Assembly (NCBI GenBank): GCA_963744145.1
Contig: CAVUSO010000001.1
Span: forward strand, 2,062,831 to 2,126,830
Reading direction: 5' to 3'
From: an uncultured cyanobacterium
Lineage (GTDB): Bacteria > Cyanobacteriota > Cyanobacteriia > Cyanobacteriales > CAWUOF01
Length of the DNA stretch: 64,000 nt
Part shown: positions 4,201 to 36,721 of the stretch, piece by piece
Position numbering within the stretch: position 1 is the first letter of the stretch
Layout of the letters: each line of letters begins with the position of its first letter
Position numbers and translations under genes: made by a program
The notes under the pieces: generated by a model
Database searches by the model: none
Told to the model about the DNA's origin: nothing
The model's input: only the letters and a program-made list of their open reading frames with translations

Positions 4201-5267
4201 TAATCACTCACTCCCAAGATGAATCTATCCGCATAGAAGCAGCAGATAGTTTAGGGAAAATTGACCCAGGGAATCCCCAGACGATCGCGGCTTTAATTGA
4301 CTTAATCACTCACTCCCATGATGAAGATACCCGCAATCAAGCGGCATATAATTTAGGGAAAATTTGGTACATTGCCCCAGGGCATTCCCAGGCGATCGCG
4401 GCTTTAATCGACTTAATCGCTCACTCCCATGATGAAGATATCAGCAGGCAAGCGGCAGAAAGTTTAGGGTACATTGACCCAGGGAATCCCCAGGCGATCA
4501 CGACTTTGACTGACTTAATCGCTCGCTCCCAAGATGAATCTATCCGCATAGAAGCAGCAGATAGTTTAGGGTACATTGACCCATGGAATCCCCAGGTGAT
4601 CGCGGCTTTAATCGACTTAATCACTCACTCTCAGGATGAAAATATCCGCAGGCGAGCGGCATATAATTTAGGGAAAATAGGAAAAATTGCCCCAGGGCAT
4701 TCCCAGACGATCGCTATTTTAATTGACTTAATCGCTTACTCCCAGCATCACCACACCCGCTATCGAGCGGCAGAAAGTTTAGAGAAAATCCTGCTAGACG
4801 ATTTTATATCAGAAGGTGTTACTCTTTTGGGAGTAAGGCAAAATCAAGAAGGCTTCAAAGTTCTATGGCAATGTGCCCAAAAGATGTCCTATCCAGCTTT
4901 CTATGAAGCTTATACAGTTTCCACTCTTGAGTATTGTCAGAAGTGGCTGGAGATTAAACGAACCATCGGTGATAAGCGAGGTGAGGCAGATTATCTGATC
5001 GCAATAGGTACTTTATATCAACAAAGTCGGAAATTTCGGGAAGGACAGGCATTTCTTCAACAAGCTATATATATTTTACAGGAAATTAATGCACCTATTG
5101 ATGCTTATCCCTTTGCCCAGTGGTTAAAATCAATTATTAAATTTGCTAATGGGGGCAAGTTGCAGTTAGCTCTATGCTTTATTGCTGGTTTAATAGCATT
5201 TCCGATAGCATTTCCTTTGGCTTTGATGTGGTTTTTAGCAGTGTGGTTGTGGCGTAAATGGCATTAG
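1257..5267 (+). CDS. STAND (signalling NTPase) protein: N-terminal caspase-like peptidase C14 domain - NACHT NTPase - about 9 PBS-lyase-type HEAT repeats - C-terminal hydrophobic segment
   Basis: A caspase-type His/Cys dyad is present (FFAGHGL … FLDCCHSGD). Walker A is VILGEPGAGKTTLLQ, Walker B is WLFLDGADEM, and LLTCR matches the NACHT sensor motif. Ten copies of a ~40-aa unit (…IRxxAAxSLGKIDPGNPQAIAALIDLIxHSxDE…) are encoded by ~120-nt nucleotide repeats at 3700-4790. The final 50 aa are hydrophobic. Confidence 0.8.
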   Translation: MKRQALVIGINRYPFLKQHLDGPDRDANDIANLLDRPQEHPDDFTWCVERLLSAKIETEDSTVKTEELREAIQNLFLPTTKTPPEVVLLFFAGHGLRNKAGEVYLAASDVCPTRKDKWGFPIEELRELMQKSKIPQQIVFLDCCHSGDLVNGLTNLTEPELQQWNIGGSRLIVTACRDDRTAKGIGKRGVLTEALLQGLDPQNRETGYWVSTYFLYEFLMRHINYNPLLKEQIPLCYRYGEPINFWMGKGESDRLPTSTIGWWKSICEQRLEQQHAISSKFLTGIAPKIEDVYVPLGLVERQQKSRQKDGGEIDATRGSALYEETEITRRFQHHEFLENVLRRGDSPKSKGKRLVILGEPGAGKTTLLQQASRWVAAEIEDAIVLWVSLADLGGRSLEDYLLEVWLLEIVRMALEVSVSETDKKDFIVQVDQGRVWLFLDGADEMAASKPLLKIDKQIRNPGWLNKARILLTCRLNLWDSGSNPLAEFDVYRTLEFDYPVQVEQFINSWFTDLGKTDEKAIARGQQLCTALKESGKERIQDLVKNPLRLTLLCFTWHKWQGKLPDTKAGLYENFIERFYEWIENKFPVTVEKQEQLNKALGELAREAIDKELTRFRLRRKFVSKFLGSPKDKKSLFYLALQVGWLNQVGVDADNPDEPVYAFYHASFQEYFAALAVEDWQYFLHHIPQNPQLGTYRIFEKQWKQVILLWLGRENIPKDQKEEFINGLVEFHDGCRGFYKYQAYFLAAAGIAEFKTCNRSQEIVAEIVKWGFGYFDNEKQSWMTFYEPIPETARKALKETDSQKAIILITQLINTDCSESIRWQAAESLGEIDPGNPQAIAVFIDLIAHSHDEFTRWKAAEELGKIDPGNPQAIAVFIDSIAHSRVYPPSAAAKRLGKIDPGNPQAIAALIDLIAHSHSHDEYTRTSAANSLGYIAPGNPQAIAALIDLITHSHDEYTRRSAADSLGKIDPGNPQAITALIDLITHSQDESIRIEAADSLGKIDPGNPQTIAALIDLITHSHDEDTRNQAAYNLGKIWYIAPGHSQAIAALIDLIAHSHDEDISRQAAESLGYIDPGNPQAITTLTDLIARSQDESIRIEAADSLGYIDPWNPQVIAALIDLITHSQDENIRRRAAYNLGKIGKIAPGHSQTIAILIDLIAYSQHHHTRYRAAESLEKILLDDFISEGVTLLGVRQNQEGFKVLWQCAQKMSYPAFYEAYTVSTLEYCQKWLEIKRTIGDKRGEADYLIAIGTLYQQSRKFREGQAFLQQAIYILQEINAPIDAYPFAQWLKSIIKFANGGKLQLALCFIAGLIAFPIAFPLALMWFLAVWLWRKWH

Positions 5268-5412
5268 TATCTCAGCAGAAGAAGGGTGAAGCATTCGGAT
5301 ATAATATTACTGCCCTTCGACTACGCTCAGGGTAAAGTTTAAGCGTTCAATTTTCGCCCGAATGCTTCACCCCTACACTTAACTGAACCGTATTGCATTA
5401 AATCAAACAAAA

Positions 5413-5697
5413 ATGTCACCAAATACTCTCTTACTACCCCAATTCCAAAACCTACTCAATACGCTACCCATCGAAGGAGCAGTCCGCATCGAACTTGCCG
5501 AAGGAGTCCCGATTTTTCGAGCTTCTAGTGCTGTCCAAACTCGCATTAAGGAACTGCTCGAAAAACAAAGCTCTTTTCCCTTAACGATAGAAGAAGAACG
5601 AGAACTTGACCTTTATGAAGAAATCGACGATTACCTGAGTTTTGTTAATCGGACAATTCGCAATCTTTTTTTAGCTCAAACTCAGCTTAGTTTATAA
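5413..5697 (+). CDS. Hypothetical small protein (94 aa) flanked by two direct copies of a hairpin repeat
   Basis: Clean ORF with no recognisable motif. It sits between repeat copies at 5283-5400 and 5771-5900. Confidence 0.35.
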   Translation: MSPNTLLLPQFQNLLNTLPIEGAVRIELAEGVPIFRASSAVQTRIKELLEKQSSFPLTIEEERELDLYEEIDDYLSFVNRTIRNLFLAQTQLSL

Positions 5698-6083
5698 AGA
5701 TATCGGGGCTTTTTATTATGGGTTTAACCCTCATTGGGTGGGCAACAGTTGTCGGCTTAATCTCAATACAGTTCAGTTAATTGTAGGGGCGAAGCATTCG
5801 GGCGATAATTTATCACTTAAACCAGTTAATTTTATATCCGAATGCTTCGCCCTTCTTCTGTGCCGAGATCTCCAAAAACATTCTTAACTGAACCGTATTG
5901 TGCTTAATCTTGAATCGCGAAAGAGTTATTAATATAAGATATGCTGATCAAACCATAGGAAGACACCCGCCAGATGGCGATCGCATTCAGCCAGAAACTT
6001 AAACCGATTTCATGCTAAACTCATAGATGCAGTCTTACATTCTGGTTTCAAAAAATTAAAGATAATCAATAAGGACTAGAGCT

Positions 6084-6329
6084 ATGAGTATTGTGATCTC
6101 CGATGAAATTTTAACTATAACTCGCATGACTGAACCGGAAATGAGACAAGAAATTGCTGTTCTGCTCTTTCAGAGGGAAAAGTTGACACTTGCTCAAGCG
6201 AGTCGATTTGCTGCTATGAACCGGATTGCTTTTCAACACCTCCTCGCAAGTCGTCAAATCCCAGTACATTACGGTGTAGAAGATTTTGAACAAGACATTA
6301 AGAACTTACGGGAGATGGGTAGACTGTGA
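6084..6329 (+). CDS. UPF0175-family antitoxin-like protein
   Basis: 81 aa. EMRQEIAVLLFQREKLTLAQASRFAAMNRIAFQHLLASRQIPVHY…EDFEQDIKNL matches the UPF0175 pattern (…LSLGKAAELAGMSxxEFxxLLxxRGIPxxY…EDLExDL). Confidence 0.65.
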   Translation: MSIVISDEILTITRMTEPEMRQEIAVLLFQREKLTLAQASRFAAMNRIAFQHLLASRQIPVHYGVEDFEQDIKNLREMGRL

Positions 6330-6457
6330 TCATTGTCAGCGATCGCACAGTGATTGAAGCACTGAGTAACGAACTTGATCCAGGTGAGGCTGAGGCGATC
6401 GCTTTGGCGCTGGAACTAAAAGCCGATCAAATTTTGATTGATGAACACTTGCCCTAA
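6326..6457 (+). pseudogene. Truncated DUF3368/PIN-like toxin remnant downstream of the UPF0175 gene
   Basis: A short ORF overlapping the UPF0175 stop encodes VIIVSDRTVIEALSNELDPGEAEAIALALELKADQILIDEHLP then stops. This resembles only the C-terminal ~45 aa of DUF3368 partners (…GEAEAIALAxExxADxLLIDE). Confidence 0.45.
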
Positions 6458-6617
6458 CCTTAAAATTATCAAACACCATTTGACAGCGATCGCCTCTTAC
6501 TTCACCAACCATCACTCTTATTAAAAGCCGTTAATGCTAAAAGCAAAGAATGGGATAATTGGCAGATTTGACCCAATTAGTGCTATAGTTTAGCTTAATT
6601 CATTACAAGGAAAAGCT

Positions 6618-20583: not shown

Positions 20584-21516
20584 ATGAGTATCATTGTCTT
20601 TGGTAGTATTAACCTCGACCTAATTACTACAACTCCTCGCTTCCCTCATCCTGGCGAAACTATCCAGGGCTATAATTTTTATACAGCAGGTGGTGGTAAA
20701 GGTGCAAATCAAGCTGTAGCAGCTTCCCGTCTGGGAGTCACAACCCATCTGATTGGGCGCGTTGGTGCTGATAATTTTGGCCAAGAATTATTGAGAAGTT
20801 TAGAGTCTTATGGATTAAATATTGATAATATTTTGATTGACAAAACTACTCATTCAGGTATTGCAATTATCACTGTAGAGGATGGTGGTCAAAATAATAT
20901 TATCGTTATTCCTGGAGCAAATAACTGTGTTAATGATCTAGATGTAGAGCGTTTAAAAGAAATATTACCAACAGCTACAACTTTGTTATTACAGTTAGAA
21001 ATACCTCTAGCAATTGTGCAACAATCGGCGATCGCTGCATGGGAAGCGAAGGTAAAAGTTATTCTAGATCCCGCACCTGTTCGCTCAGATATTCCCAGGG
21101 AATTATATCCATTAATTGATATTATTACTCCCAATGAAATCGAAGCTAGTCAATTGGTAGGTTTTATGGTGAATAGTCGGGAGAGTGCGATTGATGCTGC
21201 TGTTCAATTGCGTGATTGGGGTGTTAATACTGCTATTGTTAAATTGGGCGATCGAGGTGTTGTTTGTGCAACGGCTGATGAGACCTTTTTTCTTCCAGCT
21301 TTTCCAGTAGTTGCTGTTGATACAGTAGCTGCTGGTGATGCTTTTAATGGGGGACTTGTAGCAGCTTTAGATAGTGGTTTAGCTTTGCGAGATGCGGTAG
21401 TTTGGGGGACAGCAGCAGGTGCTTTATGTGTGATGAAACCTGGTGCTCAACCTGCTATGTGCGATCGCGGAACTTTTGATGCTTTTTTGGCAACTGTTCA
21501 CGGACCCAAGCTCTAA
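20584..21516 (+). CDS. rbsK: Ribokinase (PfkB carbohydrate kinase family)
   Basis: MSIIVFGSINLDL…AGGGKGANQAVAASRLG is the ribokinase N-terminal GG motif. The C-terminal DTVAAGDAFNGGL is the PfkB signature 2. Start taken at the ATG at 20584, after the repeat cluster. Confidence 0.8.
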   Translation: MSIIVFGSINLDLITTTPRFPHPGETIQGYNFYTAGGGKGANQAVAASRLGVTTHLIGRVGADNFGQELLRSLESYGLNIDNILIDKTTHSGIAIITVEDGGQNNIIVIPGANNCVNDLDVERLKEILPTATTLLLQLEIPLAIVQQSAIAAWEAKVKVILDPAPVRSDIPRELYPLIDIITPNEIEASQLVGFMVNSRESAIDAAVQLRDWGVNTAIVKLGDRGVVCATADETFFLPAFPVVAVDTVAAGDAFNGGLVAALDSGLALRDAVVWGTAAGALCVMKPGAQPAMCDRGTFDAFLATVHGPKL

Positions 21517-22126
21517 AAGCTCTCATTGTCTTATTTCTACCATCCGTATTGATTCTACTTAAATATTCGGGGATTACCTCAATGAGGGGTAAATTAGGAA
21601 AAATAGAACTAAATTTTGACTCCCTATACTTTCCATCTTCTAGCACATTAATTTGTAACTTACCTTTTTCAAATCGCCAAAGTTCAGGCACTTTTAAAGC
21701 TGCATAAATATCTGGATGAGTGCGAGAAGTTATATCTATCTCCAAGACTAAATCTGGAGGGGGATCATGGCTTAAGTCTAATTTAGATTTTCCTCTGACT
21801 AATGCTTCATTTTGGATATAGAAACAGTTATCTGGTTCTATTCCTTTCCAAGTTTCTGGGTTGGTAAAGGTAGTAGATCCCAGAGGATAAAAATCAATAT
21901 TTAGTTCTTCTAAAATAATTTCTACAAAGTTACCGATGAAGATTTTGCTAAATTCATGCTCTGGTAATGGTGTCATAATTTCTAATCTGCCGTGATCATA
22001 AGCTATTCTGGAGGTACGATGTTCTCCTAATTCATCTAAAATAGATTCAAATTCTTGCCAGGTGATCCCATCTAAAAATATTTTATGACCGGGTGGTATG
22101 TTAAATCGCTTTAATTCTAAGAGCAT
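21455..22126 (-). CDS. Uma2-family (DUF820) endonuclease-like protein
   Basis: FLDGITWQEFESILDELGEHRTSRIAYDHGRLEIMTPLPEHE… aligns with the other Uma2 paralogues at 17575, 25287 and 55950. Confidence 0.7.
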   Translation of the reverse strand: MLLELKRFNIPPGHKIFLDGITWQEFESILDELGEHRTSRIAYDHGRLEIMTPLPEHEFSKIFIGNFVEIILEELNIDFYPLGSTTFTNPETWKGIEPDNCFYIQNEALVRGKSKLDLSHDPPPDLVLEIDITSRTHPDIYAALKVPELWRFEKGKLQINVLEDGKYRESKFSSIFPNLPLIEVIPEYLSRINTDGRNKTMRAFRAWVREQLPKKHQKFRDRT

Positions 22127-25286: not shown

Positions 25287-26051
25287 TCAATCAATTTCAT
25301 CTGGGTTTAGTCCTAGCGATCGCAAGCGTTCTGCTAATCTTTCGGCTCGTTGACGCTCTTGTTCAGCTCGTTGACGCTCTTGTTCGGCTCGTTGCTGCTC
25401 TTGTTCGACTTGTTGTTGAGCTAATACAGCACGTTGTTTAACTTCTTCAGCTTCTTGTAAGGCTGATTCTAACTTTTGATTAGTTTCACTAGGATCGTAA
25501 AATAGATTACCATTAGGATGATAAAGCTGTAATTCTTCACTTGATAAATCAAACCGAATACCTAGTCTTGGGCTTACCCAATTATTCATTTCTTCAATGA
25601 CGCATAAATTATCTTCTGCTCTTAACCAACCAGTCAAATCATTGTTTTCTGGGTCATAAAGATAGTATTCTTCGACTCCATAAATACGATAAAATTCCTG
25701 TTTTTTACTCATTGCTGATAATCTATTCCCAGGTGAAAGAATCTCAAATACTACTTGTGGGGCAATGTTTCCTTCTTCCCATTGTCGATAGGAACCTCGA
25801 TGTTTTTTTTCAGCTCCAAATACCACCATTACATCAGGAGCTTGACGAATTTTATTATTTCCTTCGACTGGATACCATAATAAATCCCCAGCAATAAATA
25901 CATTAGGTACATCTGCAAATAAGCTGACCAAATTGCAATAGATGATCGTAATCCAATAAAATTGCTTGGTATTCTCTGACATCGGGTTACCGTCGTCCTC
26001 TGGGTAAATTACTGTGGGTTTAGCGGGCGATTCTAGTTTCATCATAACCAA
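25287..26051 (-). CDS. Uma2-family (DUF820) endonuclease-like protein with C-terminal coiled-coil QRAEQER repeat tail
   Basis: The Uma2 core (FYWITIIYCNL…VVFEILSPGN) is followed by QQQVEQEQQRAEQERQRAEQERQRAERLAERL. The nucleotide sequence 25340-25440 is a 30-nt tandem repeat. Confidence 0.65.
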   Translation of the reverse strand: MVMMKLESPAKPTVIYPEDDGNPMSENTKQFYWITIIYCNLVSLFADVPNVFIAGDLLWYPVEGNNKIRQAPDVMVVFGAEKKHRGSYRQWEEGNIAPQVVFEILSPGNRLSAMSKKQEFYRIYGVEEYYLYDPENNDLTGWLRAEDNLCVIEEMNNWVSPRLGIRFDLSSEELQLYHPNGNLFYDPSETNQKLESALQEAEEVKQRAVLAQQQVEQEQQRAEQERQRAEQERQRAERLAERLRSLGLNPDEID

Positions 26052-26101: not shown

Positions 26102-27349
26102 TTAATGTTCAGAATCTACCCAAACAGTTTGACCACTTGTATTGATATATCTCCACTGTTGATCTACTTTCACGTAAGCTAGATCACCCTGAACAAAAGG
26201 AAAAATATCGACTTCATCAAATTCTGGTGCGATCGCGATTTGCCCAGTTTCATCCATAAATCCCCACTTTCCCTTGAGCATGATTGCTTTTAATCCATGA
26301 TAAAAACAGTAGGAATTATCAATTTTATCAAACTGTGGCTGGACAATTATTTGCCCAGCTTGATTAATAAATCCCCACTTGTTATTAATTTCTACTGCGG
26401 TGAGATATTGAGGAAAACATTTATACGATATTCTCTCAAACTGTGGTGAAATGAGAAATTCTCCCTGGTGATTAATTAGTCCATATTTGCCATTTTTGGC
26501 GGCGATCGCTAATCCTTTTGCCGAAAATATTGATAGGGCGTAAAATTGTGGTTTCGGTTCTTCTGTAAATTTTCCATCCCGATCTATATAACCCCTTTTT
26601 GTATTATAAACTACCCAAGCTTTGCCATGATAAAAATTTTCAGCCCACTCAAATTGGGGTGGAATAACAACTTGTCCATTGTGATTAATAAAACCGATAT
26701 TATTCCCAATTCTTACTTGTGCTAATCCCTCAGAAAAAAATCCCGGAGCATCAAATTGGAGTGGAATGACAATGGTGCCATGTTGATTAATATAACCCCA
26801 TTTATCGTTAATTGCCACTGCTGCTAAGTCTTCGGAAAATCCCTGGATAAAATCAAATTGAGGTGAGGTGACTATCTGTCCTTTTTCGTTAATTAATCCA
26901 ATTTTACCGTTAATTCTTACTTGGGCTAAACCATGTTTAAATTCTTCTTCACCCTGAAATTGTGGGGGAATGATTATTTTACCAGTCTGATTAATATAAC
27001 CCCATTTCCCATTCATACTTACTGGAGTTAGTGCTTCATTTCCACAGTTTAAAACTCGCTCAAATTGGGGTGCGATCACAATTTTTCCATTTTCATCGAT
27101 ACAGCCCCATTTCTGGTTAATTTTTACTAATGCTCTGTGATTAAAGAAATCTGATACTTGTTCAAATTGAGGAGCAATTACTATTTTTCCAGTTTCATCT
27201 ATATAGCCAAACTTTTGGTTTTGACGAATGATAAACCTTTGGATCATATTTTGCGACTCTCGTGATCTTGCTTGAACTCGGGCTGAATCTGCTAAAATGA
27301 TTAATGTGAGCGTGACTAAACCTAACATCCCAAATCTACCTGGTTTCAT
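26102..27349 (-). CDS. Secreted KWG (WG-containing) repeat protein, paralogue 3 of 3
   Basis: Signal peptide, then about 12 repeats of …KWGYIDxxGKIVIxPQFDxx…F.EGLA…. Confidence 0.7.
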   Translation of the reverse strand: MKPGRFGMLGLVTLTLIILADSARVQARSRESQNMIQRFIIRQNQKFGYIDETGKIVIAPQFEQVSDFFNHRALVKINQKWGCIDENGKIVIAPQFERVLNCGNEALTPVSMNGKWGYINQTGKIIIPPQFQGEEEFKHGLAQVRINGKIGLINEKGQIVTSPQFDFIQGFSEDLAAVAINDKWGYINQHGTIVIPLQFDAPGFFSEGLAQVRIGNNIGFINHNGQVVIPPQFEWAENFYHGKAWVVYNTKRGYIDRDGKFTEEPKPQFYALSIFSAKGLAIAAKNGKYGLINHQGEFLISPQFERISYKCFPQYLTAVEINNKWGFINQAGQIIVQPQFDKIDNSYCFYHGLKAIMLKGKWGFMDETGQIAIAPEFDEVDIFPFVQGDLAYVKVDQQWRYINTSGQTVWVDSEH

Positions 27350-27364
27350 TTTTATTTTCCTTGA

Positions 27365-28699
27365 TTAACTTGTCGGTTTCCAAATTAATTTACCATTTCG
27401 ATCAACATAACCCCATTTATAATCTATTTCCGGAATTACTAGTTGAAAATTAGGAGCGGTTTTGGGACTTTTTACTTCCGTATTCTCGACCTCAATTAAT
27501 CCACCTTCGATATAACTAATATGACTAAACTGAGGAGGAATAATAATTTTACCGTCCCGGTTAATAAAACCGATCTTTTGATTAACTTCGATCGCAGCAA
27601 TTCCGTTAATGAACCGACCAGCACTATTAACTGACAGATTAGCAATCACGATTTTACCAGTTTGATCAATATAATTCCATTGATTGCCGATTTTGACTGC
27701 GGCTAAACCTTCACTAAAATATGTATAGTCATTAAATTGTGGTTTAATTATAATCTGACCTTGTTTATTTACATACCCCCACTTACCACCTATTTTCACA
27801 GGTGCGATTTCTTCAACTAAATATGTGGTTTGAGTGAATATAGGTAAACTGACTAAGTTTCCAGTTTTGTCAATCAATCCATACTTATCCCCAATTTTTA
27901 CAGGTGCTATTCCTTGGTAAAAAGAATTAGCGTCATCAAACTGAGGAGGAATAACTATTTTTCCACTTTGATCAATATAACCCCATTTTTGATTAATTTC
28001 CACTGCTGCTAGTCCCTCACTAAAATCGTGATCGCTAGAACCAAAAATATCATCTCCATGGATAGGAAATTGGATCGGGATGACTAGCTTTCCTTGGGAA
28101 TTAATAAAACCATACTTATCCCCAATTTCGATCCGAGCCATCTGTTCACTAAAATAATAAAGATGATCACAATGGGGCAATTCTATAATTTTTCCTGTAT
28201 GATCAACTAATGCGCGATTTTGAGCAAGTCTTACTTGTGCTAATCCTGATTGAAAATCACTAGCTAGATCGAATTCTATGGGGATAACTATGTGACCATT
28301 TTTGTCGATAAATCCGTATTTTGATCCAATTCTGATTCTTCCTAATCCCTCTTGAAAACTATATGCTTCATCAAACTGGGGAGTAATCACTATGTTTCCG
28401 GATCTGTTGATATACCCATACTTTTTATCCACTTTTATTGCTGCTAATCCTGCGGAAAAGCGAGAAGCTTCCTGAAAATTTGGTGGGATAATAATTTTAC
28501 CAGTAGAATCAATATAACCATATTTTCCCTGTTGCTTAATCAGTAATAGTAAAGGATCTGTTTGGTTGTTTTCCCTTAGTAACAGAGACTGCTCAGGTTT
28601 TGCTAAAAGGGACTGCGATCGCAGATCAATTAGAGATATTGCACAAACAACAGCAATTCCTACACCTACCAAGATTTTGAGGTTTAATTTGCGCTTCAT
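27365..28699 (-). CDS. Secreted KWG repeat protein, paralogue 2 of 3
   Basis: Same repeat architecture. An N-terminal TM/signal segment is present. Length 444 aa. Confidence 0.7.
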   Translation of the reverse strand: MKRKLNLKILVGVGIAVVCAISLIDLRSQSLLAKPEQSLLLRENNQTDPLLLLIKQQGKYGYIDSTGKIIIPPNFQEASRFSAGLAAIKVDKKYGYINRSGNIVITPQFDEAYSFQEGLGRIRIGSKYGFIDKNGHIVIPIEFDLASDFQSGLAQVRLAQNRALVDHTGKIIELPHCDHLYYFSEQMARIEIGDKYGFINSQGKLVIPIQFPIHGDDIFGSSDHDFSEGLAAVEINQKWGYIDQSGKIVIPPQFDDANSFYQGIAPVKIGDKYGLIDKTGNLVSLPIFTQTTYLVEEIAPVKIGGKWGYVNKQGQIIIKPQFNDYTYFSEGLAAVKIGNQWNYIDQTGKIVIANLSVNSAGRFINGIAAIEVNQKIGFINRDGKIIIPPQFSHISYIEGGLIEVENTEVKSPKTAPNFQLVIPEIDYKWGYVDRNGKLIWKPTS

Positions 28700-28762
28700 A
28701 TTCCACCAGTAGAGTGATTTTTTCTAACTTAGCTCAAAAAATAGAAACTGCCAATATGTTCA

Positions 28763-29842
28763 TTACTCCTTGGGTACAAGAAAGACTATTTTTCCAGATT
28801 TATCAATAAATCCAGCTTGATCATAATTAATAACTACAGCTGCTAATCCTTCTGAAAAATCTTCTGCGTAATCAAACTGAGCGGGAATTATGAGCTTACC
28901 CGTTTGATCAATATATCCCCATTTTGAATTGATTCTTACTGCTGACAATCCTTCATGGAAATCATGAGCAAAGCCAAAATTAGATGGGATTACTAATTTT
29001 CCATTGTGATCAAAAAAACCATACATTTCATCGTCAATTCTTACCCATGCTCGGTGTTCATGGAAGTTTCCGACCACAGCATACTTAGCAGGAATAACCA
29101 TTTTTCCGGTTTGATCTATATAACCAAATTGATCACCAACTTTTACAGCTGCTAATCCTTCTTTAAAAGGAGCAGCTAAATCAAATTGTAGGGGAATGAC
29201 AAGACGACCTGTTTGATCAATATAACCACTTTTACCACGACTATAGATTACTGCTAAACCTTCGGAAAAATTATCAGCATCACTAACATATAAAGAGATG
29301 ACAATTTTGCCAGTTTTGTCAATATATTTAATCTTAGTACCAATCTCTACTTTTGCTAGTCCCTCAGAAAAATAATCTGCTCGATCAAATTGAGGTGCGA
29401 TCGCAATTTTTCCTTGCTGATTCAAATATGCCCATTTGTTATTAATTGTGACTAATACTAATCCTTCGTGGAAAGTTGCAGCAAAATCAAAATTTGGAGG
29501 AATGACAAACTTTCCCGCTCGATTAATATAGCCAATCTTATTATTTATTTGCACCCGCGCTAATCCATCAATAAACGCTCCTGCATTTTCAAATTGTGGT
29601 TGAATGACAATTTTGCCAGTTTTGTCTACATAACCCAATTGATTACCGATCTGGATTGCTACCAATTCCTCGGAAAATCCTTGATTAATCTCCACCTCTG
29701 ACTTGTTTCTATTTGAGATTTGAGCTAACTCTAGAGTCTGATTTGCTGCAATAATTTGATTTGGATAAAGCGCGATCGCTAATCCCCAACTAAGGAGATA
29801 AAGAAAAAAAATAATAGACCTGTTCATTAATGGTAAATTCAA
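28763..29842 (-). CDS. Secreted KWG repeat protein, paralogue 1 of 3
   Basis: Same repeat architecture. Signal peptide MNRSIIFFLYLLSWGLAIALYPNQIIAA. Confidence 0.7.
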   Translation of the reverse strand: MNLPLMNRSIIFFLYLLSWGLAIALYPNQIIAANQTLELAQISNRNKSEVEINQGFSEELVAIQIGNQLGYVDKTGKIVIQPQFENAGAFIDGLARVQINNKIGYINRAGKFVIPPNFDFAATFHEGLVLVTINNKWAYLNQQGKIAIAPQFDRADYFSEGLAKVEIGTKIKYIDKTGKIVISLYVSDADNFSEGLAVIYSRGKSGYIDQTGRLVIPLQFDLAAPFKEGLAAVKVGDQFGYIDQTGKMVIPAKYAVVGNFHEHRAWVRIDDEMYGFFDHNGKLVIPSNFGFAHDFHEGLSAVRINSKWGYIDQTGKLIIPAQFDYAEDFSEGLAAVVINYDQAGFIDKSGKIVFLVPKE

Positions 29843-29902: not shown

Positions 29903-30253
29903 TCAATTTTCTTGTCTCCCAAATAAATGTTCTAATATGCGTTGATTTTCAGTACGAATACCTTTAATTTCGTTCATAATAACTTCAAAATTGCGTTGAC
30001 TTACTTCGTGATTTTGCTGATGGATTTCTACTAACTGCACTAAGGAGTTAACTGTCTTACGCAGTTCCGATATAGCAGCTCTTTCTGTTTGGATTTCTGA
30101 GCGCAATTCAGCGATCGCTGCTGAATTAGCTTGGATTTGGGCTGAATTAGCTTGGATTTGGGCTGAATTAGCTTGGATTTGAGCTGAATTAGCTTGAATT
30201 TGTTCTGCATTGGCTGCTATAATAGCTTCGATTCTGTCTAATCTTTCTGTCAT
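29903..30253 (-). CDS. Coiled-coil protein with 5 tandem heptads (ANSAQIQ) encoded by a 21-bp tandem DNA repeat
   Basis: DNA 30115-30200 is gctgaattagcttggatttgg repeated about 4 times. The protein is predicted to be all-helical. Confidence 0.5.
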   Translation of the reverse strand: MTERLDRIEAIIAANAEQIQANSAQIQANSAQIQANSAQIQANSAAIAELRSEIQTERAAISELRKTVNSLVQLVEIHQQNHEVSQRNFEVIMNEIKGIRTENQRILEHLFGRQEN

Positions 30254-30408
30254 GGTAATTTATCCTTTTTTATTTTCTATCTAGTCTGATTAACCTATTA
30301 TAGCTAAAAATCATTTGAAATGACCACTATTTTTAGCAATTGGGCAAGATGTAGTGATCATCAAATTCAGCACAAGTCCAGCGAACAAATAGGTACAGTT
30401 CGATTTGA

Positions 30409-32193
30409 TCATAAGCGATCGCGAAAGTATTGAGCATATAAATAACATCTTGGAGTGCAATCATTACCTTGCAATTTTACTAAACCCATGCTATTTAACT
30501 TAAATGCTAGAGTTGAGGGTAATCGCACTGGTAGATTGACAGTTACCACCTGTTGCATCGCTGATTTTAACTCTGGATATCTTTCTAAATTCCACAAATG
30601 ACGACGTAAATGATCGCTATAAATTCCGGTTTCTGTCGTAGCATCTTGAAGCAATTGATTGAGGGTGATATCTTGTTGGGCGATCGCATACATTGCTAAC
30701 CGTAATAAGTAGGGATGTCCTCCAACTAAATTCATGATTTGCTCTACATCATTAGGATGCCAATTCAATTGATAACATTCAGCTAATTTTTCCACTTGCT
30801 GGGGACTAAATTCAGTTAATTCTATTGGTAAACCAACATTAAAAGGTGACTTATTTACATCTAAGGGGATATAAACTTCGGTGGAGTGAACTACTACTAA
30901 ACGAAAATTTTTCCAAATATTACGACGTTTAGATTCTTCATGGAGAGAACGCAATAAGCCAAAAAAATCATCTGCAATTTCGGGGGATTCAAAAAGGCGA
31001 TCGACTTCATCTAATCCTAGTGTTAAAGGTTGAGATATTTCTGGTAATAAATATTCCTCAAAGTAAGCTTTACAGCTTTGATTGCTACCGATGATTTCGG
31101 CTAAATCTGCATATTTGGCTAGTTGCGATCGGTCTAATAAACCCAATTCTAAACTAACATTAGCGCAAAACCACTGTAAAAAAGCATCTGAATTGGTAAA
31201 AACCCGTTGATTAGCTAATTGAAAACTCAAAGCAACAGTTTTCAATCCTTGACTTTCTGCATAATGAATAATTCTAGCCATTAAGGAAGTTTTGCCCATC
31301 TGTCTCGGTGCTTTAATCCGAATTAGGGCTCCTGGTTGCATAATTCTTTCATAACACCTAGTTTCTATCGGGGGGCGATCGATATAAAAACGAGAGTCTA
31401 AATTTACTTGTCCTTCCGGTAATTCTGGTGCTGAAGTAGGCAAAGGATGATAATATTTAGTTACTGTTTCTTTGAAAGTTTTATTGGTAGTAATAATATT
31501 ATCCCACGCGATCGCTAACTCCTGATCATGACTTAATGTAGTGCGTTTTTCCTTAATGATATTAATAATTTTGGTAATTAAAATATCTATATTATTACCA
31601 CAGTTCCAACACCAAGGCTGAATTTCCTGTAAATATCCTAGTAAATCAAAGGAAATTTCATATTTCCAGGGCAAATTTAGACAAATTGGTAAAATTGCTG
31701 GTTTTTGCGGAGTAGTATGGTGTAACTCCCTCACTAAACGCACTTGTTCTGAGATCATTTCACTGATCCCTGTAGTCTCCGATAGCAGTAGCAAAAAATA
31801 ATCTGACTGTTTTAAATATAAGTCGGTCGGAATATGACTATTATTCACAAAAATTTCATAACCTGCTGCTTGTAAATGTTGTTGTAGCTGAAACGCGAGC
31901 AGAGCATCTGAGTGACAATAACTAAGCCAAATTTTGGTAATTATATTTGTCGTTGTTTCCGAGACAGATTTATCATCGAAATCAGCAATATCACGCCATT
32001 CTAGCCCTAAGATCCGACAAATTTCGAGGAAATTGGCAAAATCTACAGGTTTACCATTGAGAAAATTGCTGACCGTAGATTGGGCGATCGCTAAATTTTC
32101 CGCGAGAATTTTCTGACTGGGAAAACCATGTCGTAACAGAGAGGACTTGATTTTTGCGGTGTACTCTGGACGCACCTTTAGGGATCTGGACAT
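30409..32193 (-). CDS. HTH (XRE-like) - TIR-like domain - AAA_35-type P-loop NTPase protein (594 aa)
   Basis: The N-terminus LAENLAIAQSTVSNFLNGK is a helix-turn-helix. KIWLSYCHSDALLAFQLQQHLQAAGYEIFVN…DYFLLLLSE fits the TIR/TIR_2 core (flavodoxin-like βα start xFISYxxxD…L…G…vFxD). IRIKAPRQMGKTSLMARI is the Walker A of the cyanobacterial 'AAA-like' (PF14516-type) domain, and LTLGLDEVD is the Walker B. The C-terminal ~200 aa is helical. Confidence 0.6.
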   Translation of the reverse strand: MSRSLKVRPEYTAKIKSSLLRHGFPSQKILAENLAIAQSTVSNFLNGKPVDFANFLEICRILGLEWRDIADFDDKSVSETTTNIITKIWLSYCHSDALLAFQLQQHLQAAGYEIFVNNSHIPTDLYLKQSDYFLLLLSETTGISEMISEQVRLVRELHHTTPQKPAILPICLNLPWKYEISFDLLGYLQEIQPWCWNCGNNIDILITKIINIIKEKRTTLSHDQELAIAWDNIITTNKTFKETVTKYYHPLPTSAPELPEGQVNLDSRFYIDRPPIETRCYERIMQPGALIRIKAPRQMGKTSLMARIIHYAESQGLKTVALSFQLANQRVFTNSDAFLQWFCANVSLELGLLDRSQLAKYADLAEIIGSNQSCKAYFEEYLLPEISQPLTLGLDEVDRLFESPEIADDFFGLLRSLHEESKRRNIWKNFRLVVVHSTEVYIPLDVNKSPFNVGLPIELTEFSPQQVEKLAECYQLNWHPNDVEQIMNLVGGHPYLLRLAMYAIAQQDITLNQLLQDATTETGIYSDHLRRHLWNLERYPELKSAMQQVVTVNLPVRLPSTLAFKLNSMGLVKLQGNDCTPRCYLYAQYFRDRL

Positions 32194-32347
32194 TGGTCAT
32201 AAGGATGAGGACTCTCAAATCATTGTAAATGCTATTTCTGCAAAAGTCGATGAGTTTTCAAATAACTCAGTTAAGAACTCAAATAGCTATGTGGATTAAT
32301 AGAGATTAACCAGCAAATACCTAAAGGTTTTTTATCCAGAGGTTAAC

Positions 32348-32863
32348 ATGATATTTTCACCTAATTTGGTACTAGTCCAAATGAATATGTATTATATCCC
32401 TACTTTGCCTACATTTGGATTTTGTTTCCTAGCTGGAGTGATTTTGATTGGAATTGAGTTTTTTTTTACTAAAAGTTTGGGTAAAAAATATCAATTCATA
32501 TTTTTGTTGATGGGAATTAATGCCTTAATCATGGGATTTTATACTTTCAGAGGAAACATTTACGATCGGGCAATAAGTTGGCTGATCATCTATTGGATGG
32601 GGTTATCTTTTGCTACCATACTTTGGATTCGTCCGATATTATTACTAAAAGGTAAAAGAAATGTTGTTCAAGACGCAACTGAAGCTCAAACTATTGGCGA
32701 AATTTCATCGGGAAAAATTGGCAAAGTCATCTATGAAGGTTGTGTCTGGCAAGCTCGATGTGAGGATAAAACCATCACTATTTTACCTAACCAAACAGTT
32801 TATGTAATGCGACGGGAAGGTAATATTTTAATTGTTGTTCCAGTCGATTTATTTCAAATGTAG
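32348..32863 (+). CDS. NfeD-like membrane protein (short form), paralogue 1
   Basis: Three N-terminal TM helices plus a C-terminal OB-fold region (GKIGKVIYEGCVWQARCEDKTITILPNQTVYVMRREGNILIVVP), as in NfeD partners of SPFH proteins. Confidence 0.6.
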   Translation: MIFSPNLVLVQMNMYYIPTLPTFGFCFLAGVILIGIEFFFTKSLGKKYQFIFLLMGINALIMGFYTFRGNIYDRAISWLIIYWMGLSFATILWIRPILLLKGKRNVVQDATEAQTIGEISSGKIGKVIYEGCVWQARCEDKTITILPNQTVYVMRREGNILIVVPVDLFQM

Positions 32864-32866
32864 ACA

Positions 32867-33418
32867 GTGAACAATTTACTCGAACAGTATTTGATGTTGT
32901 TAATCGCTCTGGTCAATATGAACTCATTTTTTGTCTTTACTCCTCCTTGGTTTTGGCTAACAGTTGGGATTATTCTCTGTTCGTTAGAGCTATTTTTACC
33001 CAAAAATATTGCCACAAAATATCGCTTTATTGCCGTAATTATGGGGGTGAGTGCTTTGATAGTTTCCTTGATTTTGTGGCGATCGGCAATAATTCTAGGT
33101 TTTGGTTGGGAATATTCTATGTATGAAGGTTTTGAGTTTCAAATTATGTACTGGATGGGATTATCTCTGACTGGTGCTATTTGGATTCGTCCCATGTTTA
33201 TTAAGCGGAAAAAAGTTGAAATTCCGGAAGCAATAGATGCCCAAACTATTACAGAAATTGAAGCTGGAAAAAAAGGAAGAGTAATTTATGAAGGATGTTA
33301 TTGGTTAGCTTGCTGTGAAGATAAAACGATCGCGATCGCCCCCCATCAAAAAGTTTGCGTTTTGCGACGAGAAGGAAACACCTTAATTGTCGTACCAGAA
33401 GATTTGTTTCAAGTCTAG
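32867..33418 (+). CDS. NfeD-like membrane protein, paralogue 2
   Basis: Same architecture. GKKGRVIYEGCYWLACCEDKTIAIAPHQKVCVLRREGNTLIVVP. It starts 4 nt after paralogue 1. Confidence 0.6.
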   Translation: MNNLLEQYLMLLIALVNMNSFFVFTPPWFWLTVGIILCSLELFLPKNIATKYRFIAVIMGVSALIVSLILWRSAIILGFGWEYSMYEGFEFQIMYWMGLSLTGAIWIRPMFIKRKKVEIPEAIDAQTITEIEAGKKGRVIYEGCYWLACCEDKTIAIAPHQKVCVLRREGNTLIVVPEDLFQV

Positions 33419-33456
33419 TTGATCACTTTTATTACCAAAAGATTAGGAGGTTTATC

Positions 33457-33990
33457 ATGGACCAATTTTTATTAATGGTATTTATCGCCATTACTGGAAC
33501 TGCAACTCTAGGTAATAGCATTAAAATCATCAAACAAGGTGATGGTGCTTTAGTGGAAATGCTGGGTAAATATGAAGGGAAAAAGCTGCAACCTGGTTTA
33601 ACTTTTCTGATTCCTTTTATCGAACAGGTAGCTTATAAACAAACTCTCCGGGAACAAATTTTAGAAATTCCTCCCAAACCATGCACCACTGCGGACAAAT
33701 TTTCTGTTACTGTTGATTTTGTCATTTATTGGCGCATTACAGATATCGAAAAATCCTTTTATAAGGTACAAGATCTAAAAGCAGCGATGATGAATTTGTT
33801 GGTAACTTTGATTCGCACGGAAATGGCTAAATTGAAATTAGAGGATATTTTTACAGCAAGGGATGAAATCAATGAGGTAATGATCGACCAGTTAGATATT
33901 GCGACAGAACCTTGGGGAATTAAGGTAACAAGGGTGGAGTTGCGTGATTTTACGATCGGTAATAAAGTAGCTTTAGTCAAGCAGTCTTAG
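33457..33990 (+). CDS. SPFH / band-7 (stomatin/prohibitin-like) domain protein
   Basis: An ATG at 33457 preceded by AGGAGG. N-terminal TM segment. IKIIKQGDGALVEMLGKYEGKKLQPGLTFLIPFIEQV…VTVDFVIYWRITD matches the SPFH domain start. The predicted protein is short (177 aa) for the family. Confidence 0.55.
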   Translation: MDQFLLMVFIAITGTATLGNSIKIIKQGDGALVEMLGKYEGKKLQPGLTFLIPFIEQVAYKQTLREQILEIPPKPCTTADKFSVTVDFVIYWRITDIEKSFYKVQDLKAAMMNLLVTLIRTEMAKLKLEDIFTARDEINEVMIDQLDIATEPWGIKVTRVELRDFTIGNKVALVKQS

Positions 33991-34090
33991 TTGACTCGAT
34001 TAGATTTACACAATTACCATCATGAGGGCGTATATGCTACGCCCTATTTACTTAAACATGATAAAATAATAATTAAACAAGGATTAATTT

Positions 34091-36721
34091 ATGGAAAAAT
34101 CCTATCAATATCAAGTTGGTGGAAGTTTACCGGAAAATGCACCGACTTATGTAGTAAGACAAGCTGACTTTGAGTTATTCGAGTACCTGAAAGCAGGAGA
34201 GTTTTGCTATGTCCTAAATTCCCGACAAATGGGAAAATCTAGTTTGCTAGTTCGCACTATGCAAAGGTTAATTGCTGCGGGAATTTCCTGTGCTAGTATC
34301 GATATTTCGGATCTCGGTAGTAAACAAATTTCTTTAGACCAATGGTATGGTGGTGTTGCTTATAAACTGGTGAGTAGTTTTAATATCTGTGATACTGTTG
34401 AGTTTATGAATTGGTGGCGATCGCGAGAATTAATTTCTCCGGTGCAGCGTTTAAGTGATTTAATCGAAAATTTGCTTCTCACCAGACTTGCAGGAAAATT
34501 GGTAATTTTTATTGATGAAATTGATAGTGTTTTAAGTTTTAATTATTGTCTGGATGATTTTTTTGCTTTAATTCGTGCTTGCTATAATAAACGCGCTCAA
34601 AATTTAGAATATAATCGATTAACTTTTGCCCTTCTCGGAGTTGCTACACCATCAGATTTAATCGCTGATCATACCAGAACACCGTTTAATATTGGTAGAG
34701 CGATTTCTCTGAATGGTTTTAGTTTAGCAGAAGCTCAACCCTTAGCTCATGGATTAGCAGCAAAAGTAGAAAATTCTCAACAAGTTCTCGCAGATATTTT
34801 AATTTGGACAGGAGGACAGCCATTTTTAACCCAAAAACTATGTCAAATTATTCTCCATACTTCGATTTCTGATCAGCAAGATTGGTTAGAGCATTTAGTC
34901 CGATCGCATATTATTGAAAATTGGGAATATCAAGATGAACCAGTCCACATTAAAACCGTGCGTGATCGTCTCCTCAGAAATCAACAAAGGGCAAGTAAAT
35001 TACTGGGAATCTATCAAAAAATCTTACAAGATAGTAAAATAATTGCTGACGATAGCCCCGAACAAATCGAATTACAGCTATCAGGTTTAGTCGTTAAATG
35101 TCAAGGTTATTTACGGGTTAATAACCTGATATATGCGTCTATTTTTAATCAAAATTGGGTGGAAAAATCTCTGTTTGATCTGCGCCCTTATGCTGAAGTA
35201 TTAGCAGCTTGGTTAGCTTCCCAATGTCAGGATGAATCGCGATTATTACGTGGAAAAGCTTTGCAAGATGCCAGGGAATGGGCTAATCATAAAAGTTTGA
35301 GTACCCCAGATTATCAATTTTTAACTGCTAGTCAAGAATATGAATTAGCTGAATTCCGCAAAAAAGAACAACAAACCCAAATTGAAATTACTCGACTTTC
35401 CCAGGAAAAAGAATTATTAGAAAAATTAAACCAAGAACAAGAACAACGTAAATTAATAGAAAAACAACTCCGACAGGAACGGATGCTTAAAGCTGAAATA
35501 ATGGTGAGATTATCTGCTGCTTTAATCGCGATTATAGCTTTTCTGATCGGTACATTCTGGGTGAAATCATCCATTGATGATAACCGAGAAAAAATTATCT
35601 CTATCAGTTTATTTTCTGAAGCCCTATTTGAAGAAGGTAGACCCCTAGATGCCCTCAGAGAAAGTATTAAAGCTGGAATAGAATTAAAAAAATCCTTGGA
35701 TATAGATGCTGCTACTCAGATGCGGGCTTTAATGGCATTAAACCAAGCAGTTTATAGCTTTCAAGAACGAGAAAAATTGCTGGGATATACCAGTAAAGTT
35801 ACTTTTGTAAATTTCAGTCCTGATAGTCAGATCATTGCTACTGCGAATACAGATAAAACTATCAAACTTTGGCAAAAAAATGGTAAATTTCTCTCAGTTT
35901 TAGCAGGGCATGACGCTACTATTTACAGTTTGAGTTTTAGTCCAAATGGTCAGATGATCGCTTCCGCAAGTGCAGATAAAACCGTCAAACTTTGGCAGCA
36001 GAGTGGCAAATTGATTACCACTTTAAAAGGACATACTGCTGCTATTTATAGTGTTATTTTTAGCCCTAATGGTAAGTTAATTGCATCTGCTAGTGGTGAT
36101 GGAACTGTAAAAATTTGGCAACTTAATGGTAAGTTAGTTACTACTTTAAAAGATAATGATGCTCCAATTTATAGTATTAGTTTTAGTCCGGATGGTCAAA
36201 AAATTGCATCTGCTAGTGGTGATGGAACTGTAAAAATTTGGCAGTCTGATGGGAAGTTTCTTCAGATTTTAAATGAACATAATGCTGCGGTGTTAAGTGT
36301 TAGTTATAGTCCAGATGGAACTATGCTTGCTTCTGCTAGTGCTGATGGTACGGTCAGACTTTGGGAGTCAAATGGTAAACGCTTAAGTATTTTTCGACAT
36401 AAAAGTAGAGTAAATAGTATTAGTTTTAGTTCGGATAATCAGATCATTGCTTCTGCTAGTGCTGATAAAATGGTTAGATTGTGGCACCGCGATGGGACGC
36501 TAATCAAAACTTTAAAAGTTCATCAAGATCAGGTTTTAAGTGTAAATTTTAGTCTAGATGGTATGATGTTGGGTTCAGTAAGTTCTGATGGAAATGTCAT
36601 TCTTTGGAATTTACAACTTGAAGATTTGTTGAAAGCAGCTTGTCAAATTATAGGCGATCGCGATCATATTTCCCAGGTCGATCAAAATGACCTACATCTG
36701 TGCGACGGTGTTTTTAGATAG
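34091..36721 (+). CDS. AAA_35-type NTPase - coiled coil - TM helix - 8x WD40 repeat protein (876 aa)
   Basis: [22 protein letters not shown] is the same NTPase family as the TIR protein. [10 protein letters not shown] is Walker [19 protein letters not shown] coiled coil follows. The TM segment is [18 protein letters not shown]. Eight repeats of …ASASxDxTVKLW… (WD40) are present. Confidence 0.7.

Follow-up and report, generated by a model that had tools for sequence, protein, structure and literature searches.

The locus at positions 30409 to 36721 of a 64,000-nucleotide (nt) window (the whole stretch of DNA analysed, from contig CAVUSO010000001.1 of an uncultured cyanobacterium) belongs to a conserved, uncharacterised module found in filamentous cyanobacteria and is of its NfeD/SPFH type. 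It encodes protein A, with a helix-turn-helix (HTH), a TIR domain and an AAA_35 NTPase. Divergently from A it encodes two NfeD proteins, a short SPFH protein and protein B, a second AAA_35 NTPase with a predicted transmembrane (TM) helix and WD40 repeats. The locus looks more like a signalling switch than like a classical phage defence depleting nicotinamide adenine dinucleotide (NAD), because the TIR domain, although genuine, lacks features that are usual for catalysis. A first-pass annotation had proposed such an NAD-depleting TIR-STAND defence locus. This proposal is largely contradicted by Gln150 in the catalytic column, the deleted BB loop, the conserved synteny and the gene context.

The reading frames and domains named in the first-pass annotation were all recovered in the list of open reading frames (ORFs) and by Pfam. 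Some details were corrected. For the SPFH gene the ATG at 33457, giving 177 amino acids (aa) and matching the gene callers, is more likely than the TTG at 33355, and protein B contains seven WD40 repeats instead of eight (seven stretches in Pfam; period of 41 aa). The features of the locus are:

30409-32193, minus strand: gene A, XRE-type HTH, degenerate TIR and AAA_35 NTPase, 594 aa (ORF and Pfam)
31972-32151, minus strand: A residues 15-74, HTH of XRE/Cro-C1 type (HTH_26)
31543-31935, minus strand: A residues 87-217, degenerate domain of TIR fold (AlphaFold model and homology)
30421-31422, minus strand: A residues 258-591, AAA_35 NTPase with helical and winged-helix module (Pfam, profile positions 1-330 of 331)
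32222-32282, minus strand: candidate promoter/operator-like element upstream of A, in the divergent region between A and NfeD1 (intergenic alignment across genera)
32348-32863, plus strand: NfeD1, 171 aa, three hydrophobic segments and C-terminal NfeD OB domain (Pfam and hydropathy)
32867-33418, plus strand: NfeD2, 183 aa from a GTG start (174 aa by gene callers; Pfam)
33457-33990, plus strand: short SPFH/Band_7 protein, 177 aa, N-terminal hydrophobic anchor and SPFH domain (Pfam)
34091-36721, plus strand: gene B, AAA_35 NTPase, helical middle domain, coiled coil, TM helix and seven WD40 repeats, 876 aa
35498-35563, plus strand: B residues 470-491, predicted single TM helix (Kyte-Doolittle hydropathy)
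35753-36613, plus strand: B residues ~555-841, seven-blade WD40 propeller, predicted extracytoplasmic (Pfam WD40, motif spacing)

Conservation of the module

In a scan with one genome per species, relatives of A were found in 49 loci, and the middle domain of B was encoded within a few kb in 39 of them. In about 40 genomes the genes of A and B are neighbours. The closest GTDB species representative is about 61% identical to A.

The arrangement differs between lineages. In the usual one, that of Nostocales, the units are divergent: a protein A of about 440 aa, composed of XRE-type HTH and AAA_35 without TIR, stands opposite a unit for one or two TPR proteins (about 335 aa, signal or TM segment at the N-terminus) and, after them, a B of about 1250 aa. 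This TPR accessory is represented by 36 proteins in 28 loci. Four Phormidium/Laspinema loci encode a sigma70_r4-TIR-AAA_35 protein, a secreted protein of 198 aa and B, all on one strand. The arrangement of the window, the SPFH type, was found in eight other loci in which an SPFH protein at least 60% identical is encoded near A (related loci carry L numbers; L050, L051/52, L053, L054, L055, L056 and L058). They come from two Phormidium genomes, one Microcoleus and one Aerosakkonemataceae genome; the others are metagenome or read-archive contigs. Here A diverges directly from one or two NfeD genes and the SPFH gene, which in L053 lie a few kb away. B was found wherever the contig is long enough. 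On the 4.8-kb contig of L060, with an SPFH protein 62% identical, no A was seen within this short sequence.

Two gene orders occur among the SPFH-type loci. Either A diverges from NfeD-SPFH-B, or B precedes A, which diverges from NfeD-NfeD-SPFH. In the latter order a C39-like membrane peptidase that carries a peptidoglycan-binding domain is encoded ahead of B. The A proteins of SPFH-type loci are the nearest relatives of A in the window (72-79% identical in AAA_35), and full-length orthologues, 61-68% identical, adjoin NfeD/SPFH genes in L050, L051 and L053-L056. The first-pass annotation had grouped A, NfeD/SPFH and B as one linked unit. This linkage is kept in the eight other loci in two different orders, which argues that the three work together.

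In every version the accessory is a membrane or secreted protein: TPR protein, 198-aa secreted protein, C39/peptidoglycan-binding peptidase, or NfeD with short SPFH protein. The common TIR-less version contains no enzymatic effector.

Insertions were observed within related loci. In L053 the HTH-TIR-AAA_35 gene is separated from the NfeD-NfeD-SPFH operon by a PBP_like_2 gene and KaiB-like and KaiC-like genes (3151-6541). The divergent region between A and B is an insertion site in L020 (8402-9862), L036 (6166-9857) and L041 (5409-6332). Small ORFs of 73-164 aa, some common to both, are inserted in L020 and L036; larger ones encode 503 aa in L036 and 307 aa in L041.

The TIR domain of A and its catalytic state

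The middle domain of A, at first annotated as TIR-like, proved to be a genuine TIR homologue by fold and homology. The AlphaFold model of residues 1-257 (predicted local distance difference test, pLDDT, 72.5) contains a domain of five strands and five helices at residues 87-217. Its best Foldseek matches were 22 TIR structures, including RPS4, SPARTA, Cat1 and SARM1. A scored 27.2 bits (E 6e-6) with TIR_2 (PF13676), slightly under the cut-off of 28 bits; the orthologue of L053 exceeded it with 43.1 bits. With a profile of the TIR region 948 relatives were collected among 1.84 billion representative proteins. TIR_2 was detected in all 98 relatives scanned (best E-value 2.9e-48). Since the score of A itself is below the threshold, its TIR homology was established by these matches of its relatives.

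AAA_35 was also present in 69 of the 98 relatives. Thus, TIR_2-AAA_35 proteins form a large family, and the fusion is common. This TIR subtype is also combined with CHAT, trypsin, caspase, EAD11, bDLD1, VMAP-C, kinases and cyclases. The relative P0156 (779 aa) contains TIR and AAA_35 followed by a C-terminal Guanylate_cyc domain (Pfam, 64 bits), and therefore a nucleotide-signalling output fused to the same core.

A catalytic Glu, expected for the proposed NAD depletion, was sought in the family alignment. Compared with the PDB, the profile of the TIR region matched Cat1 alone (E 0.09); this match set the register of the alignment and is not taken as proof. The column in question lies 12 residues after the Ser ending beta-C and aligns with the Glu of the WCWDE motif of Cat1, which we take to be the catalytic Glu. 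It holds Glu in 138 of 155 family members and Gln150 in A. Within the subclade of XRE-HTH-TIR proteins, A and 11 relatives have Gln, one relative has Thr and six have Glu. Four residues before, in the Trp column, A has Met146, and 121 of the 155 family members have Met. The spacing from beta-B to beta-C is 15 residues in A versus 22-23 in the mainstream family, the BB loop being about 8 aa shorter and its motif 'SIxxGxxW' deleted. As read from this alignment, the TIR of A lacks canonical NADase features. The preceding Glu149 is invariant across the subclade, and in the orthologues of L050, L051, L053, L055 and L056 both columns contain Glu (Glu-Glu).

In the Microcoleus orthologue (L054) the TIR is reduced to remnants of the first strand, and about 35 Nostocales orthologues are entirely TIR-less. 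Therefore, the orthologous group can perform its core function without this domain. Judging from these comparisons, the TIR of this lineage appears to be decaying: Glu changed to Gln or Thr, the BB loop was lost and one orthologue suffered a deletion. Its origin lies in the wider TIR_2-AAA_35 family, whose TIR_2 is catalytically canonical. With Gln in the Glu column, Met in the Trp column and no G..W segment in the BB loop, it is most likely an oligomerisation or adaptor module and no efficient NADase. In general, a TIR call in AAA_35 proteins is no proof of an NADase effector; the catalytic column must be checked.

HTH and NTPase of protein A

Pfam assigned AAA_35 to A with 488 bits and HTH_26 to residues 15-74 with 27.2 bits (cut-off 22). 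According to hydropathy A is soluble, without a hydrophobic 19-mer or TM segment. The HTH region was modelled with pLDDT 85-91 (AlphaFold 2), and the block QSTVS-FLNGKPVD-ANF-E-C--L--EWR-IAD in it is invariant in 15 relatives.

The model of residues 250-594 is confident (AlphaFold 2, pLDDT 93). According to model and sequence, AAA_35 of A consists of NTPase, helical bundle and winged helix, with a GxP motif. Foldseek matches were the Pyrococcus Walker ATPase 2qen (E 4e-10), archaeal ORC2/Cdc6, Avs3 (STAND, antiviral), Roq1 and RPP1 (plant TIR-NLRs) and MalT. The first-pass assignment of AAA_35 as a STAND-related P-loop NTPase was thereby confirmed, the fold being of ORC/Cdc6-STAND type. Motifs of A are PRQMGKTS (Walker A, GKTS), LGLDEVD (Walker B, DEVD) and GGHPYL, with motif residues invariant among the A2 sequences. 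The corresponding motifs of B are GKSS, DEID and GGQPFL; 32 of 33 B orthologues have both Walker motifs intact. Given the structural matches and the intact Walker A, Walker B and GGxP motifs in both proteins, 'STAND-like' seems a fair description of AAA_35 in A and B. The polypeptide of A ends with the winged helix and carries no C-terminal repeat sensor; WD40 repeats are found on B alone.

Over 315 aa, the AAA_35 modules of the two proteins share 24% identity. Neither had a relative among PDB sequences. No paper mentioning the family PF14516 was found; searches for 'AAA_35' returned noise, and 'AAA-like domain' one genome-comparison table.

A conserved TCGA-box element

The genes of A and NfeD1 are separated by 154 bp. 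In the alignment of this intergenic region across genera, one block is conserved far above the remainder. On the plus strand of the window it reads AAGTCGATG at 32244-32252 and AACTCAGTTAAGAACTCA at 32264-32281. In the sense of A the element is TTGAGTTC-N23-ATCGACTT, with TCGACT followed after 17 nt by TACAAT, a promoter-like site on the minus strand (32250-32222). Scans of promoter and terminator consensus sequences gave no excess over the shuffled expectation.

In related loci the TCGA box occurs as a tandem pair spaced by 11 bp. The pattern ATCGA[CG]T-N4-ATCGA[CG]T was matched 45 times in 1.81 Mb of related-locus DNA, versus about 0.1 expected. Nearly all tandem boxes are located 70-140 bp upstream of A and on its strand, in about 28 TIR-less Nostocales loci and all SPFH-type loci. 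In L053, where A and the NfeD operon lie apart, each has a tandem box in its promoter region. Where insertions part A from B (L020, L036), the box remains on the side of B. Every A with the XRE HTH has such an element upstream; the four loci in which A carries a sigma70_r4 HTH instead lack it. The simplest reading of this distribution is that the HTH of A would bind TCGA boxes and control A together with the divergent operon. The boxes are a concrete and testable DNA element accompanying the A/B pair.

Two to four further tandem boxes were observed past the 3' end of A in L054 (6692-6703, Microcoleus) and L058 (6761-6794, metagenome). They suggest additional target promoters. In L054 a tandem box is also located about 190 bp upstream of a Uma2 gene.

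Protein B, a putative membrane-spanning WD40 NTPase

In B, Pfam detected AAA_35 with 115 bits at residues 11-353, plus WD40. The propeller is marked by seven [KRI][LI]W motifs spaced by 41 aa, corresponding to a tandem period of 123 bp in the DNA. The middle domain, by which B was recognised near A in related loci, is helical and conserved.

The TM segment of B reached a Kyte-Doolittle score of 2.29 (19-mer). Hydropathy was calculated for 32 orthologues and the B of the window. In all 33 sequences a single strongly hydrophobic 19-mer (1.84-2.59) lies between coiled coil and propeller, and K/R-rich sequence precedes it in the sequences scored. This suggests an orientation with the N-terminus inside and the C-terminus outside, which would place the WD40 propeller outside the cytoplasm. 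Such a location fits the accessories, which are secreted or membrane proteins.

Between the stop of the SPFH gene and the start of B (33991-34045), a single ACTCGAT box (33994-34000), in itself weak evidence, overlaps a promoter-like TTGACT-18 nt-TACCAT. A GC-rich hairpin with a weak T tail follows at 34025-34045. B may have its own regulated promoter.

NfeD and SPFH proteins

NfeD1 and NfeD2 matched Pfam NfeD with 35.6 and 37.4 bits and are 46.6% identical to each other. The position of NfeD1 is conserved in L050-L056 and L058. The SPFH protein matched Band_7 with 94 bits (profile positions 1-151 of 176). It stops right after the SPFH domain, past which relatives of 306-310 aa continue. A truncated pseudogene was considered and rejected; about 75 of the 90 matches listed are of the same short form (172-209 aa). 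According to Pfam and hydropathy, the window follows the pattern of NfeD-SPFH operons, in which TM-bearing NfeD proteins are encoded upstream of an anchored Band_7 protein. NfeD-SPFH pairs whose SPFH protein is at most 58% identical were found in about 25 loci without A, B or another AAA_35 neighbour. No paper connecting SPFH or NfeD proteins with anti-phage activity was found.

Defence context and synteny

The six proteins of the locus were compared with PADLOC-DB v2. No significant match was obtained for the proposed defence locus: the best matches of A were ThsB (E 0.011) and SAVED-TIR (0.026), the NfeD and SPFH proteins matched no model, and B matched a generic WD40/HEAT model alone. The NCBIfam scan of the six proteins yielded nothing useful. 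Family scans of the window neighbourhood found no integrases, transposases or known defence genes. The flanks of the module are constant within the Rivulariaceae, the Scytonema/Tolypothrix group and the Phormidium type. Hence, the neighbourhood check did not favour defence either: synteny with ordinary genes is kept within families, and mobile or defence genes are missing from the surroundings in the window. Phormidium-type loci are flanked by a polyprenyl synthase/C39 peptidase region on one side and a HetZ-transglutaminase-GGDEF region on the other. In L050, L051, L055 and L056 the HetZ and transglutaminase/GGDEF region lies about 1-3 kb downstream of the SPFH gene, with synteny kept.

A membrane-to-DNA switch and alternative readings

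As the preferred reading of the module we propose a membrane-to-DNA NTPase switch, with confidence evenly balanced for and against it. B would span the membrane, with the NTPase on the cytoplasmic side and the propeller on the outer side, and could sense an envelope or extracellular cue. Upon NTP-dependent oligomerisation B would recruit A by contacts between the AAA_35 modules. The NfeD/SPFH assembly, or the TPR protein elsewhere, would serve as membrane or periplasmic partner or platform. The HTH of A would be the output, acting at the TCGA boxes and regulating A and the divergent NfeD-SPFH-B operon. The TIR between HTH and NTPase would act as a degenerate oligomerisation or adaptor module.

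Several points weigh against this proposal. The window contains only one perfect TCGA box. Binding of the boxes by the HTH and the interaction of A and B are inferred, and the topology of B is predicted from hydropathy and charge bias. Defence systems with autoregulation also typically combine an HTH with an operator. The invariant Glu149 and the six Glu-Glu relatives make residual or altered catalysis by the TIR of A possible. No experimental work on any AAA_35 protein was found in the literature. Furthermore, CHAT, trypsin, caspase, EAD11, bDLD1 and VMAP-C, the partners of related TIR domains, belong to the vocabulary of predicted conflict systems (PMC7159879, PMC8195603).

The chief alternative is abortive infection or programmed death of NLR type, which we regard as unlikely. 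B, or A and B together, would sense an invader, and the clustered TIRs of A would deplete NAD+ or produce a signal. Glu149 would be a shifted catalytic residue, the NfeD/SPFH proteins a membrane co-effector or platform, and the HTH would merely autoregulate. Fold and homology of the TIR are in agreement with this explanation, as are the STAND-type NTPase with its structural matches to Avs3, Roq1 and RPP1, and the Glu kept by the wider TIR_2-AAA_35 family (138/155), whose TIR is shared with CHAT, caspase, trypsin and EAD proteins. The invariance of Glu149 in the subclade and the Glu-Glu pairs of L050, L051, L053, L055 and L056 also count in its favour. Paired STAND operons and TIR-STAND proteins are likewise predicted to be conflict systems (PMC8195603). 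However, A has Gln150 in the Glu column, Met in the Trp column and a deleted BB loop, and the TIR is lost in L054 and absent in about 35 orthologous modules, which have no other effector. The missing PADLOC match, the lack of defence or mobile genes nearby and the synteny within families also disagree with defence. A propeller predicted outside the cytoplasm would be oddly placed for sensing phage replication.

A further reading is an SPFH/NfeD-scaffolded membrane 'resistosome'. The external propeller of B would detect envelope damage or phage attachment, A and B would co-assemble on the SPFH platform, and a TIR rewired to Glu149 would consume NAD+ or signal. We consider this improbable. If true, it would be a bacterial counterpart of the membrane immunity of plant HIR and NLR proteins and the first functional link of SPFH/NfeD to STAND immunity.

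Equally improbable is that NfeD-NfeD-SPFH is a housekeeping operon in its own right, serving membrane quality control or microdomains, with no functional tie to A or B. In its favour, NfeD-SPFH pairs often occur alone, as in roughly 25 metagenome loci and the Roseofilum locus L057 without an AAA_35 gene nearby, a hairpin and a promoter-like site are located between the SPFH gene and B, and none of the NfeD and SPFH proteins matches a defence model. Against it stands A beside NfeD genes in eight other loci (SPFH at least 60% identical), among them Phormidium, Microcoleus and Aerosakkonemataceae genomes, and in two orders. The tandem box before both A and the separated NfeD operon in L053 and the other envelope proteins filling the same slot in other lineages also speak against it. 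Finally, a CheY-like pseudo-receiver or other flavodoxin-like domain in the middle of A, making it an HTH-REC-NTPase regulator, is scarcely credible and was ruled out by the TIR domains among the structural matches, all of the top ones being TIR, by TIR_2 in all profile relatives and above cut-off in L053, and by Ser138 in place of an Asp at the end of beta-3.

Comparison with known systems

The kinds of components are already known: TIR, STAND-type NTPase, WD40 sensor and NfeD-SPFH pair. As in TIR-STAND and NLR proteins (Avs, bNACHT; the plant TNLs Roq1 and RPP1), the TIR of A is N-terminal to an NTPase of ORC/Cdc6-STAND type with winged helix, and a beta-propeller sensor is part of the system. 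Unlike there, the repeat sensor is carried by a separate, putatively membrane-spanning paralogue, B, an XRE-type HTH precedes the TIR, the TIR lacks canonical Glu, Trp and BB loop, and no PADLOC model is matched.

With MalT, AfsR/SARP-like proteins and GutR, A shares an NTP-dependent oligomerisation switch fused to a DNA-binding HTH, MalT being among its structural matches. The conserved operator-like element at the promoter of A is a further likeness to STAND-type transcription regulators. In contrast to these regulators, the HTH of A is N-terminal and of XRE type, A carries no sensor repeats, and sensing is presumably performed by membrane protein B and the envelope accessory.

NfeD-SPFH operons are represented by YbbJ-QmcA and YqiJ-YqiK of E. 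coli, PH1510-PH1511 of Pyrococcus and HflK/C-FtsH. In the window, as in such operons, short membrane NfeD proteins with C-terminal OB domain are encoded directly upstream of an anchored SPFH gene. It differs by the duplicated NfeD, the short 177-aa form of SPFH, the link to two NTPases and the shared upstream box.

A computational catalogue (PMC8195603) covers paired STAND operons and TIR-STAND proteins of multicellular bacteria. The likeness comprises the hosts (filamentous cyanobacteria), two adjacent genes of STAND-type NTPases and interchangeable N-terminal modules (TIR, HTH, peptidases, kinases), with CHAT, caspase, EAD11, bDLD1 and VMAP-C as TIR partners. [quoted passage not shown] NfeD/SPFH and TPR accessories, the TM topology of B and the TCGA-box operator are undescribed in the sections consulted. 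In the papers searched, no description was found of the unit of A, B and accessory, its SPFH/NfeD version, the TM topology of B or the TCGA-box element. In plants, HIR proteins of the SPFH family organise receptor and NLR signalling at the plasma membrane (PMC13534476). Here too an SPFH scaffold occurs with NLR-type components; this is a functional analogy only, with no sign of common descent.

AAA_35 proteins are abundant in filamentous cyanobacteria. The comparison defines the anatomy of the A/B pair as a soluble HTH NTPase, a putatively membrane-spanning WD40 NTPase and an interchangeable envelope accessory. No earlier report of an association of an SPFH/NfeD scaffold with STAND-type NTPases was found in the papers searched. 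If the membrane-to-DNA switch is true, a new route of signalling would be added to those of multicellular cyanobacteria; an immune role would mean a new kind of membrane-based system.

Adjacent genes

Further features of the window beside the locus are:

29903-30253, minus strand: ORF of 116 aa, coiled coil with four AQIQANS heptads (ORF list)
26102-29842, minus strand: three tandem paralogous genes of 415, 444 and 359 aa, adjoining the 116-aa ORF downstream
21455-22126 and 25287-26051, minus strand: two genes of Uma2-family putative endonucleases

The first-pass annotation had drawn attention to the 116-aa coiled-coil ORF beside the TIR gene. It exists as an ORF with a repeat, a 4 x 21-bp tandem repeat encoding 4 x AQIQANS. 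It is probably no part of the conserved module: none of 137 related loci has a counterpart near A, and the ORF was therefore rejected as a component. Pfam, PADLOC and NCBIfam scans gave weak coiled-coil matches alone. Its exact sequence was not found in a collection of 15 billion proteins, so the ORF is uncalled or called differently there. It may be no real gene.

Other neighbours in the window are genes of a PfkB kinase, PNP, a GDSL lipase, DUF1400, a CIA30/NAD-binding protein and glyoxalase II, beside the two Uma2 and three WG-repeat genes. In the 359-aa paralogue of the latter, a hydrophobic segment at the N-terminus is followed by WG_beta_rep repeats (Pfam, 315 bits). The second Uma2 gene of the window encodes a C-terminal tail of QQRAEQER repeats. 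Uma2 genes also adjoin the module in L020, L036, L037 and L054.

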